Origin: an uncultured Methanosarcinales archaeon
GTDB taxonomy: Archaea > Nanobdellota > Nanobdellia > Woesearchaeales > CALCXY01
Assembly (NCBI GenBank): GCA_964385185.1
Contig: CAYLOA010000006.1
Location: forward strand, 1-45,231
Direction of reading: 5' to 3'
DNA: 45,231 bases
Below are positions 9,001 through 12,000 of this stretch, piece by piece. Every line of letters begins with the position of its first letter. Positions within the stretch are counted from its first letter, which is position 1. Made by a program: the position numbers.

Positions 9001-12000
9001 AGATGCAGTTCGTTATTCTAGTACTATCAGTGTTGCATTTACCGTCCCTCAAGGGACTTTAGAGGGAATCGGTGTTGTCTGGGTACCTTTCAAGGAAAAT
9101 GGTTGTATTTCTTCATATATTAACGAAGAGATGAAGGGCGATGAGTGTATTCAAAACGGCCGATCCTTAGTTTCCATTTGGTTGCATGATGTGTATGCTA
9201 AGACTTTAATGAGTAAGTCACGTGATGAGATATTTTTAGCTGTACAGAAAGAGTTTTTGAAAGTGTGTCCTAATATTATAAATGAGAGTGATCTTAAACT
9301 TCATGACTTGCAGATTTGGGAAAAAGCAATGCCACTCTATTCACAAGGTTATTTGACCCATGTTAAAGAATTTTTAGATGAAGGTCAAGGAGAAGATAAT
9401 ATTTATTTTTGTGGTGATTATCTGAATAGTACTTGGACAGAAGGTGCATTTAGATGTGGACAGAGAGTTGCTGACCAGATTATCAAGAAGTATTCCTAAT
9501 TGCTGCTATAAATTCTTCATCTGAAGGAAGATTCTTAGGATCAAATACGATATCTCCTGTTAAGTCTTGATATAATTGCATACCTGTATTTACGGTTCCA
9601 TAAATTCCACCATACCCTGATGAAGCATTACACCAAAAGAAATTGTTCCAAGGTGTTTTAGATTTTAATCTTCCAATACCAATCTGTTCTGGAGTCATCG
9701 TTGAACCATATGCGTTTCCAAACGGTGCCATGACAAAATCCTCGTTTGTTGTAGGCGTTCCTACTATTTTTACTTCAATATGTTTTCTGAGGTCAGGAAT
9801 GTGATATTGTTCTACTAAATCTATTAATCTATCTGCTATTTTATTTTTTATTCTTACATATTTCCCATAGCTTTTATCCATTTCTTCCTTAAAGATATCA
9901 TAATTAACAAAGGTTTCAATTTCAACAATATGGCATCCTTTTGGAGCGGTGCCTGGATATTGTGAATGCATAGTTGGAGTTGAGATGAAAAACCAAGGCT
10001 TTTCAAAATTACCTTCCATCTCTTCTTTCCACATCTTATTCATATCCCATTGGGTCATATGCCAAATGTTATGTTTGCCTAGATTGTATTTTTTGGGATC
10101 AAATCCTTTTTTTAATCCTAGGTAAATCATAATTCCTGAAGGAGAATATTTGTAATTAAGACTTTTTTTGAAAGATTCTGGGAATTTTTCTTGTCCGATT
10201 AATTTGGAGGCTGCTTGAGGATCCATATTACAGATAAAATTCTTTGCTGTGAAAGTTTTTCCGTCTTCTGTTTCTACGCTGGTAACTTTATCGTTGTTTA
10301 TATTTATTTTAGAAACTTTTGTTTGGTAATATATATGTCCTTTATGGTCTGTGATGAATTTGGCTAATCTGTCGATGTAATATTTGAAGTGTTTTGTGGG
10401 ATAGTATGCACCGACATTGTAGCCGCCAAATAATGCTACATATCCAAAAATGGATAACTCATCAGGAGGGGATCCAAAATCTCCTGCTTGAGCACATAAG
10501 ACTGCTTGTGCTTCTTTAGAAAGATTACATTCGTCATATACATTTTGTAACGTTTTATTTTTGTATTTTAGTAAAGTGATGAATGATGGCCATAAGGTTG
10601 CGTATTCCCATAGTTTGATATTGTTAGGTGGGAATTTGCTTAATTCTGTTTTTATTTTAGTGAGGATATTACAAAACTTTTTCATATTTTCTTTTTGTCC
10701 AGGATATGCCTTTTCTACGTTTTCAATGAGTTTATCATAGCCAAAGGGAATCTTTACTCTTTTATTATCTGGCATGATCATATGATCGTATCCATCTGGA
10801 TTGTATAATTCGAACGTGATGTCTTTCTCTAAGTTGAGTTTTTTTAGAAATTCGTAGACTTTTCCACCTGGGCCACATCCCCAGATGTAATGTATTTGAG
10901 CGCAGAATGAATATTCTCCTCTTTTGAAGGTGTGTGCATATCCTCCAGGGATGTCATGTGCTTCTAACATGCAGATCTTTTTTCCTGCTTTTGCTAATAG
11001 TGATCCTACTGTTAATGCAGAATTACCTGAGCCGATTATAATGTAATCGTATTCATGCTTTTCTTTGTAGAGTGTATTTTGTTTTTCTATTTGTTCTTTG
11101 GTTAATGCACCTGTGCTATGTTTTTTCATTTGAATTCAACATCTCCTTCTAGGTAGACTCCTTTGTGGAGTGTGACAGGTCTCCAGGTATCTTCAATTAA
11201 CGTTGCTTGTAGCCATGTTGAAAGTTCTTTTGGATTACCAATAGTTGCTGATAATCCTAAGATTTGAATATTTTTTAGAAGTTGTCTTAAGATTGTGATT
11301 AAAATTTCTAGAGTAGGACCTCTACTGGGGTCGTTGAGTAAATGGATTTCATCAATAACTACTAATGAGACATATTTTAACCAAGGAGCTTGATGACGGA
11401 TTAATGAATCGAGTTTTTCTGCTGTGCAGATGATGAAGTCATATTCTGTTAAGTAAGAATCTGTTGAATCTATGTCTCCTATGGATAATGCTATTTTGAA
11501 GAATGGATTGTATCTTTTTTTGAGTTCTTTGAATTTTTCTGTTGCTAATGCTTTTAGGGGAACAATGTAGATTACTTTCCCTCTATTTTCTGTAATGTTT
11601 TTTATTGCGGCTAATTCAGCAATTAATGTTTTTCCAGAAGCCGTTGGTGTGCAGATTAATTGAGATTTGAAGTCAAGAAGTCCTTCTTCTATTGCCTTTT
11701 TTTGAGCGGGTCTTAATTCTTTTACTCCTGCTCCTTGTATTATTTTTTTGAAAGCATCTGGTATAGGAATATCTTTGATTTGCATTAGATACGAATATGG
11801 TAAATGTTTATAAGCCTTAGGGCAAAAGTTTATATATTGATTTTCTTGAATTGGGGGTATGGGTCAAGAATTAATTCCTGAAGATAAAGAATCTCTAGAA
11901 CCGGAGAGGGGGAAAGTATATAAGTATTCAGTAATCGAGGATTATATTAAAAATGGTTCTGCTCTAACAAGAAATGAGACTATTAAGACTGTTGTTCTGG

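Follow-up and report, generated by a model that had tools for sequence, protein, structure and literature searches.

The two genes and the site of the cut

The window, by which we mean the whole 45,231-base stretch of DNA that was analysed, carries on its reverse strand a short, intact gene whose product matches only the front part of the archaeal DNA-repair helicase Hel308 (Hjm). The remainder of a Hel308 is encoded elsewhere in the same genome (G000), on contig C17. The two products are called the N piece and the C piece in the following, and the genes and the features adjoining the first of them are these:

11126..11785, minus strand: gene for the putative N subunit of a split Hel308, an intact 219-codon open frame with an ATG start
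11129..11185, minus strand: part of the N gene encoding residues 201-219, the C-terminal tail, equivalent to residues 198-216 of PfuHjm, the start of domain 2 (RecA2)
11807..11813, minus strand: TATA-like box TTATAAA, 22-28 bases 5' of the ATG of the N gene
11126..11129, minus strand: ATGA overlap, in which the TGA stop of the N gene shares bases with the ATG of the next gene
9483-11129, minus strand: gene for an FAD oxidoreductase downstream of the N gene, starting in the ATGA overlap
8519-10075 of contig C17 of G000, plus strand: gene for the putative C subunit of the split Hel308, 518 aa

The 219-aa N piece gave hits to the Pfam families DEAD (E 4.6e-33) and ResIII and to nothing else. Its match to PfuHjm (2zj2; E 1e-59) covers residues 1-214 of that helicase, and archaeal Hel308/Hjm helicases are also the closest solved structures of the N piece. 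An AlphaFold model of the piece, calculated with an alignment of 46 relatives as input (pLDDT 90.9), superposes on residues 1-216 of 2zj2 with a Z score of 26.3 and an rmsd of 1.9 Å over 215 aligned residues, and on the Sulfolobus Hel308 (2va8) with a Z score of 28.0; by the structure-based alignment, the identity to Hjm 1-216 is 46%. The RecA1 motifs, namely Q, I, Ia, Ib, II (DExH) and III, are all found on this piece. In the usual naming of such motifs, Q28 is motif Q, PTASGKT (residues 47-53) motif I, DEIH (145-148) motif II and SAT (179-181) motif III.

The C piece aligns to Hjm 230-709 (E 4.7e-89) and matches Helicase_C, HTH_61 (E 1.2e-7), Helicase_dom4_arc (E 2.6e-29) and HHH_5 (E 5e-5) in Pfam, with the winged helix, the ratchet (domain 4) and the HhH domain (domain 5) all present after the motor part. 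The RecA2 motifs IV, IVa (F/YHHAGL), V and VI were located on this chain and are invariant or nearly so among 36 C sequences; motif IVa of Hel308 is named in the available text of PMC10484726. In the protein of G000, motif IVa reads FHHAGL (residues 87-92), motif V TPTLAAG (115-121) and motif VI QMSGRAGRP (152-160).

On the 739-position NCBIfam Hel308 model NF002654, N accounts for positions 1-218 and C for positions 223-714, and this coverage, together with that of Hjm, indicates that one Hel308 is tiled by two genes with neither overlap nor loss. With the fused relative L002 as the reference, residue 211 is the last in N and residue 217 the first in C. The junction in L002 reads ...WRPVKLYNGIYTNSEIDFFNEKENIKLEEVSPDSTLNLALST..., the C-terminus of the N piece reads ...WRPVTLHKGVYLEGDVEFK and the N-terminus of the C piece reads MANLKIPEISNDATINVALDT, so that the combined junction loop of the two pieces differs in length from that of fused relatives by ~3 residues or less. 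Neither piece alone reaches the NF002654 cut-off of 887 bits (280.1 for N and 465.7 for C), and both lie below the cut-off of 1200 set for NF040935 (226.7 and 324.7); if Hel308 is defined as one polypeptide at equivalog score, neither of them is a Hel308.

The C piece has its own beginning as well. In 36 C pieces, the start lies ~10-25 residues before the conserved INLALDT helix, and the in-frame sequence upstream of these starts is unrelated (n = 36). Within G000, the N piece is the sole DEAD/ResIII protein that lacks Helicase_C in frame, and the C piece is the sole Helicase_C protein without DEAD. DEAD fragments on contig C10 of this genome, which were considered as a second split, belong to one Ski2-like gene interrupted by a 100-N scaffold gap. 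Open reading frames, Pfam domains and Hjm alignments agree for both pieces, and bear out the first-pass annotation in reporting a Hel308 encoded by two genes at the coordinates given above.

The exact position of the cut can be read from the Hjm structure, in which domain 1 comprises residues 1-197 and domain 2 residues 198-399 (available text of PMC2636818). On Hjm, the alignment of the N piece extends to residue 214 and the piece itself stops near 216, so that ~19 residues of RecA2 belong to it. In the AlphaFold model, strands assigned by DSSP at residues 209-212 and 215-218 form a beta-hairpin in this tail (WRPV...GDVEF), and the tail residues W201, R202, P203 and V204 are unchanged across 46 N sequences. 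The gene is cut in a loop just inside RecA2, after its first beta-hairpin, and not at the border of RecA1 and RecA2, the assignment of the hairpin to RecA2 depending on the domain limits of one paper (PMC2636818, available text). The cut had initially been placed between the two RecA motor domains. The motor is indeed divided over two genes, but by those published limits the site is ~19 residues within RecA2. Compared with the one-chain Hel308/Hjm helicases (2zj2, 2va8, 2p6r; NF040935, NF002654), the same five domains and all motifs are found in the same order, but here on two unlinked genes with the break in the loop after the first RecA2 beta-hairpin.

Judged by sequence, the spacing of the TATA-like box suggests that the N gene may give a leaderless transcript from its own promoter. 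TATA-like boxes occur at -35 to -26 upstream of 15/45 N genes and 15/36 C genes, counts made without a shuffle control. Such frequent boxes ~26-35 nt before both ATGs would fit separate leaderless transcripts, and each Hel308 gene probably has its own promoter. Among public runs recorded as RNA, none was found that contains the N-gene stretch.

Integrity of the genes and distribution in the order

Both genes are located well inside their contigs (45,231 and 24,444 bases). The stop codon of the N gene and the start of the gene downstream are covered, free of indels, by contigs of four other public runs from four studies; in one of these, run X6, which may be the source sample, a 6193-base contig spans positions 10800-12200. 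The place of the stop is shared by relatives: of 80 related N ORFs, 78 stop 1-8 residues past the conserved ...G-x-IEF, with TAA, TAG or TGA as the codon. These public loci are labelled 'Candidatus Woesearchaeota' (44), Nanoarchaeota/Nanoarchaeia/Nanobdellota-type (19), 'uncultured Methanosarcinales archaeon' (16) and 'archaeon' (1). The order name Woesearchaeales, taken from the first-pass annotation, agrees with these titles. One of the loci (L049) has an N ORF of 416 aa that was considered as a fusion and rejected, the added length coming from an open frame antisense to a dehydrogenase gene. With the contigs of four other runs across the stop codon and the same end in 78/80 relatives, the view that the split is not a sequencing break has held up.

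To describe the distribution within the order (Woesearchaeales), we used a sample of 151 genomes from 143 genera; it includes the unpublished G132 and G112, and no conclusion depends on these. The N piece was found in 141 of the 151 genomes at E<=1e-10 and in 138 at E<=1.1e-46, and all 138 strong matches are in open frames of 197-350 aa. The three weaker best matches, as well as a second set of matches (~E 1e-20) in frames of 629-672 aa, represent a paralogous Ski2-like helicase. The C piece was found in 141/151 genomes at E<=1e-30, in frames of ~480-590 aa that are never joined to N. Both pieces are present in 132 genomes, N only in 6, C only in 9 and neither in 4. Among the one-piece genomes, G096 (N only) and G106 (C only) are rated 100% complete with ~20 contigs each, and their missing pieces were not found even at relaxed thresholds. 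For the 15/151 genomes with a single piece, incompleteness is the only explanation at hand.

Where both pieces are on the same contig (13 pairs), the distance between them is 3.2-423 kb and the strand may be the same or the opposite one; in no case are they adjacent. Four single-contig genomes are included, all four having both pieces, at distances of 37 kb (G016), 170 kb (G085), 332 kb (G025) and 423 kb (G097). A C gene lies within 3 kb of N at only one of the 80 related loci (L038), where two opposite-strand genes stand between them. These distances agree with the earlier description of the two genes as unlinked.

The motor motifs are strictly kept on both sides of the cut. In 46 N sequences, which are 62-76% identical to the query, Q28, PTASGKT, DEIH and SAT are invariant, and 36 C sequences (38-60% identical) retain F31, FHHxGL, T115/L118/G121 of motif V and Q152/G155/R156/G158/R159 of motif VI. 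This invariance indicates that both halves of the ATP site are maintained. The counts of relatives in the first-pass annotation were reproduced and enlarged here (151 genomes of the order and a class sample of 301), and its description of the split as fixed across the order is upheld by the 138/151 genomes with N, the 132/151 with both pieces and the absence of a fused form. That almost every sampled genome of the order has the split shows its age.

Hel308 in other orders

A sample of the phylum, which includes the unpublished G325 and G326 without any conclusion depending on them, contains seven genomes of other orders that match N at E<=1e-25. In the five of these that were examined, the N and C matches are in one frame of 687-744 aa (5/5). 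For a wider view, the class was searched with the Hel308-specific domain 4 (PF21280) in 301 genomes that are at least 80% complete. Within the same order, 60/62 genomes match; their frames are 343-583 aa long, with an additional one of 1030 aa that bears an intein, and no domain-4 frame in the range of 650-760 aa occurs among the 62 genomes. In other orders, 85/239 genomes match, with 71 in frames of 671-757 aa, 2 in frames of >1200 aa and 12 in frames of <650 aa. That other orders have the fused gene, as stated earlier from a single genome, is thus sustained by 71 of 85 domain-4 matches and by the five genomes of the phylum sample.

Five of the 12 short frames were followed up (G351, G460, G284, G431 and G392). 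Those in G351 and G460 are breaks at contig ends. G284 has a C-like gene on a 3.1-kb contig, which is possibly mis-binned, and no N was found in this genome. The remaining two, G431 (a closed genome) and G392, represent two other families of the class in other orders, and have a second split form that is cut directly after motif VI. Its first piece (371 or 385 aa) contains DEAD and Helicase_C and ends in ...GRAGRP; its second piece, a protein of 345 aa in G431 and a 366-aa open frame in G392, opens with the last part of RecA2 and contains domain 4. In G431 the pieces are 2.4 kb apart with four lipid-synthesis genes in between, and in G392 they are 25 kb apart on opposite strands. The cut site can be placed on Hjm through P160 of the C piece, which corresponds to P372; domain 2 runs on for 27 residues beyond it.

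This second form resembles the one in the window in that Hel308 is encoded by two genes with the cut inside RecA2 and all motifs kept, but differs in that the cut follows motif VI and the second piece comprises the end of RecA2 and domains 3-5. Given the position after motif VI, the first piece holds RecA1 and most of RecA2. When the two cut positions are compared with domain 2 of Hjm, each is seen to place a small element from one end of RecA2 on the adjoining chain. With G431 and G392 belonging to other orders, a split Hel308 as such cannot be regarded as exclusive to the order.

The history of the split within the order was approached with a quick tree of the C part, in which four fused sequences fall outside the split ones and one (L002/G180, with a fused protein of 699 aa) falls inside, with weak support. 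In an AU test (LG+G4), the best tree with the fused rows together is unrejected and scores higher (p-AU 0.663), so a single origin of the split is compatible with the data, though not proven.

A probable two-chain motor, its rivals and its precedents

Two conserved, intact genes jointly hold every part of Hel308, each with its own start and stop. We consider it likely that they encode a naturally split DNA helicase, a Hel308 (Hjm/Ski2-like SF2) of two chains in which the N piece forms the N-terminal subunit. SF2 helicases couple ATP hydrolysis to movement by means of the cleft between two RecA domains, which are on one chain. ATP hydrolysis by SF2 enzymes requires both RecA domains, according to the available text of PMC4737156 and PMC10946056. 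On the sequence evidence, the ATP-driven motor is most likely assembled from two chains, and the tiling of the pieces, the order-wide split and the fused outgroups lend weight to the original proposal that the ATPase cleft would have to be rebuilt from two polypeptides.

In such an enzyme, RecA1 and its ATP-binding motifs (Q, I, II and III) would come from the N chain, together with the first beta-hairpin of RecA2. The C chain would contribute what remains of RecA2, including motifs IV, IVa and V and motif VI with the arginine finger, and also the winged helix, ratchet and HhH domains. The two chains would associate non-covalently after translation, and the hairpin of the N chain may complete the RecA2 fold in trans. 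In Hjm, the DNA tunnel is formed by domains 3 and 4 with domain 1 (available text of PMC2636818); RecA1 of the N chain would presumably take its place against domains 3 and 4, in a ring as in the one-chain enzyme. ATP would then bind to the N chain, with motif VI of the C chain assisting its hydrolysis, and a working 3'-5' helicase would be restored. Since the termini tile the fused relatives to ~3 residues, a new docking segment seems not to have evolved, and the old intramolecular contacts would need to hold such a heterodimer together.

The two pieces may instead have become independent proteins, with C serving as an ATP-independent DNA-binding or annealing factor or as the partner of another RecA1, and with N having another job or several partners. 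This is in keeping with the unlinked genes and their different neighbours, with the single piece of 15/151 genomes (the completeness rating being 100% for two) and with a strand-annealing function described for Hel308 in the available text of PMC10484726. We nevertheless regard it as improbable, as invariant ATPase motifs on both pieces would make little sense if the cleft never formed, both pieces are kept in 132/151 genomes and in 4/4 closed ones, and G000 has no other orphan RecA1 or RecA2.

Covalent joining into a one-chain Hel308, by protein trans-splicing with a split intein or at the RNA level, is very improbable. The idea has precedents: the DNA polymerase of N. equitans is joined by a split intein, and LAGLIDADG inteins are present in the C piece of relatives, at motifs V and VI. 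Nanoarchaeota also trans-splice tRNA halves (available text of PMC3655853). However, neither the N nor the C piece has an Intein or Hint domain. In N, 1-8 residues follow the last conserved strand, and in C, ~14 residues precede the helix that comes next. The match of these ends to the loop length of fused relatives, to within ~3 residues, leaves no room for intein fragments, in accordance with the earlier remark that no split intein is visible.

Short helicase fragments in metagenome bins are frequently artefacts, and G351 and G460 outside the order are such cases with both pieces stopping at contig ends, but the chance that the genes described here are one broken gene (a pseudogene, a frameshift, or an artefact of assembly or binning) is negligible, and the shared stop, the 138 strong N matches in short open frames, the four single-contig genomes with pieces 37-423 kb apart, the independent contigs across the stop codon and the invariant motifs refute this reading as far as sequence evidence reaches.

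A broader and rather improbable proposal can be put forward tentatively. The Hel308 motor may have been cut at least twice independently in the class, each time inside RecA2 and with one chain keeping a terminal beta-element of the domain of the other, in such a way that fold complementation makes fission viable. The two-chain state may then have persisted since the ancestor of the order because it is used, with activity gated by assembly or by the supply of separately transcribed subunits, or because the small RecA1 chain also serves other partners, as in the genomes that seem to have kept one piece.

Split enzymes with a helicase module have been found in archaea before. Nanoarchaeum equitans and Methanopyrus kandleri have reverse gyrases split into subunits, which are reported to associate into an active heterodimer (available text of PMC4117796). 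These resemble the present case in being archaeal nucleic-acid enzymes with an SF2 helicase module in two subunits. As described in that text, they are cut at the boundary of helicase and topoisomerase (N. equitans) and inside the topoisomerase (M. kandleri), so that both RecA domains stay on one chain, whereas the cut in Hel308 runs through the motor. In the Nanoarchaeota, split informational genes include those for reverse gyrase, Lhr, RNA polymerase B and others (PMC3655853, Table 1, and PMC6349945, available text). The 'large helicase-related protein' (Lhr, SF2) is among them, as NEQ003-409 and Nst172-239, and the available text of PMC3655853 reads these splits as a derived trait of reduced genomes. 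The likeness lies in the same phylum and in informational genes present as separately encoded halves, including one of an SF2 helicase. Lhr is of another helicase family, though, and those splits are lineage-specific in two species, compared with nearly a whole order (143 genera) for Hel308. As in other split enzymes of DPANN archaea, two ORFs tile a one-chain homologue, and both are conserved and under selection in relatives.

The splitting of archaeal informational genes is already known, and a split Hel308 was not found described. This holds for literature searches on Hel308 in DPANN archaea and Woesearchaeota, on split genes in Woesearchaeota and on naturally split helicases, and for the available text of PMC10946056, PMC11237513, PMC8301817 and a 2026 Nanobdellota preprint. 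A survey of Ski2-like proteins dropped 53 archaeal sequences as partial or without full motifs, a filter that would exclude such Hel308 halves (PMC10946056, available text). That the halves score below the family cut-offs is a warning for annotation in general. Hel308 is a further entry among the split informational genes of DPANN archaea; its cleft would lie between two separately made proteins that are kept nearly order-wide, and a second, apparently independent cut occurs in sister lineages. The split motor may serve as a natural test system for the weight of covalent linkage in the coupling of RecA1 and RecA2, and the state of the gene (split or fused) together with the cut site gives a simple genomic character for tracing Woesearchaeales-like lineages.

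Gene neighbourhoods

Two further genes in the window bear on the history of the N locus:

4666-5973: FtsY-type gene
4233-4664: prefoldin gene

The immediate neighbours of the N gene (two FAD oxidoreductases, small ORFs and a permease-like gene) are found beside it in 0/80 related loci. An FtsY-type gene is beside N in 39/80 loci and a prefoldin gene in 26/80, and as the window keeps both, the N gene seems to be at its old locus with later gene insertions. Neither FtsY nor prefoldin was found within ~6 kb of the fused gene in five genomes of other orders.

For the C gene, a free-standing LAGLIDADG ORF adjoining the C piece was considered as an intein relic and rejected, the similarity being only of the generic LAGLIDADG kind (E 0.003 and 7e-4). 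Rfam scans showed that the C gene follows a same-strand tRNA gene within 200 nt in 5/35 relatives, three of these being tRNA-Ile(GAU). In G000, a tRNA-Ile gene is 1.27 kb and a tRNA-Arg gene 160 nt upstream of the C gene.

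Gene order around the N piece

The N piece, which carries the first RecA domain of the split Hel308 helicase, keeps company in the window with prefoldin, FtsY-type and DUF4013 genes, whose order relative to it matches that in many relatives. Among the 80 related N-piece loci, an FtsY-like gene was found in 39 and a prefoldin-like gene in 26.

Features near the N piece (window coordinates)
4233-4664, plus strand: prefoldin gene
4666-5973, plus strand: FtsY-type SRP GTPase gene
7166-7825, plus strand: DUF4013 gene
8186-9499, plus strand: first FAD oxidoreductase gene, amine-oxidase/phytoene-desaturase-like
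9483-11129, minus strand: second FAD oxidoreductase gene, amine-oxidase/phytoene-desaturase-like
12219-12563, plus strand: small protein of 114 aa; zinc finger of the treble-clef type (zf_Tbcl_2, E 1.6e-14)

This gene order is interrupted in the window by one uncharacterised 357-aa gene and the two FAD oxidoreductase genes; neither oxidoreductase gene was found next to the N piece in the 80 relatives. The two oxidoreductase genes are convergent and overlap by 17 bases, and the start codon of the minus-strand one shares an ATGA with the end of the helicase N gene. The zinc-finger gene is divergent from the helicase N gene, and the N-terminus of its product is rich in Arg, Ser and Asp.

tRNA genes and a folded spacer upstream of the C piece

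The C piece, comprising the remainder of the helicase, is preceded on contig C17 of the source genome (locus L001) by two tRNA genes, a free-standing LAGLIDADG_3 ORF and a folded spacer.

Features upstream of the C piece (L001 coordinates)
7169-7245: tRNA-Ile gene
7233-7949, minus strand: LAGLIDADG_3 ORF, 238 aa, E 5.9e-9, between tRNA-Ile and the C piece
8284-8357: tRNA-Arg gene, 5' of the C piece
8358-8518, plus strand: folded spacer, 161 nt, from tRNA-Arg to the C-piece start

The 3' end of the ORF shares 13 bases with the tRNA-Ile gene. The spacer is predicted to fold into hairpins arranged in series, with a folding energy of -59.8 kcal/mol (z -4.45; none of 200 shuffles was as stable). 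It matches no Rfam family and occurs only once in the source genome. In 5 of 35 relatives (L094, L100, L103, L105 and L115) the C piece has a same-strand tRNA gene no more than 200 nt before it; three of these genes are tRNA-Ile(GAU), and two are long matches, of 122 and 152 nt, with probable introns. By eye, L001 ~8150-8230 (plus strand) resembles the 5' part of a tRNA, with a GCCCCAGTGGTATAGTGG-like start; the stretch was not called by ARAGORN or Rfam at E<=0.1.

Inteins and a second split form

In some relatives a full intein of ~450-510 aa, carrying both an Intein_splicing and a LAGLIDADG_3 domain, interrupts the C piece. The insertion site is motif V (TPTLAAG) for three of the genomes and motif VI for the remaining one. 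To these inteins the LAGLIDADG_3 ORF of contig C17 shows generic similarity only.

Intein-bearing C pieces
L122 554-3607: genome G093
L123 705-3848: genome G072
L127 626-3631: genome G079
L124 461-3079: genome G087, with an additional frame change around C residue 420

Two genomes of other orders split Hel308 differently, directly after motif VI (GRAGRP).

Hel308 halves in other orders
L138 1136-2251 and 4697-5734: genome G431
L139 1454-2611, and L140: genome G392

Four lipid-synthesis genes (CTP_transf_1, CDP-OH_P_transf, PHP and CarS-like) lie between the halves in G431.

Genomes in which one piece was found, and a paralogous helicase

Two assemblies rated 100% complete, of ~20 contigs each, show only one Hel308 piece apiece: G096 has an intact N piece, with neither a C piece nor domain 4 (the ratchet domain) found in the whole genome, and G106 has a C piece, with no N piece found genome-wide even at E 0.001. 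The source genome also encodes a second, one-chain Ski2-like helicase.

Second Ski2-like helicase of the source genome
Contig C10 17048-18830, minus strand: one-chain gene with FHHAGL and QMAGRAGRRG

Its sole interruption is a 100-N scaffold gap. Paralogues of 629-672 aa, found in many relatives, match the N piece at E ~1e-20.
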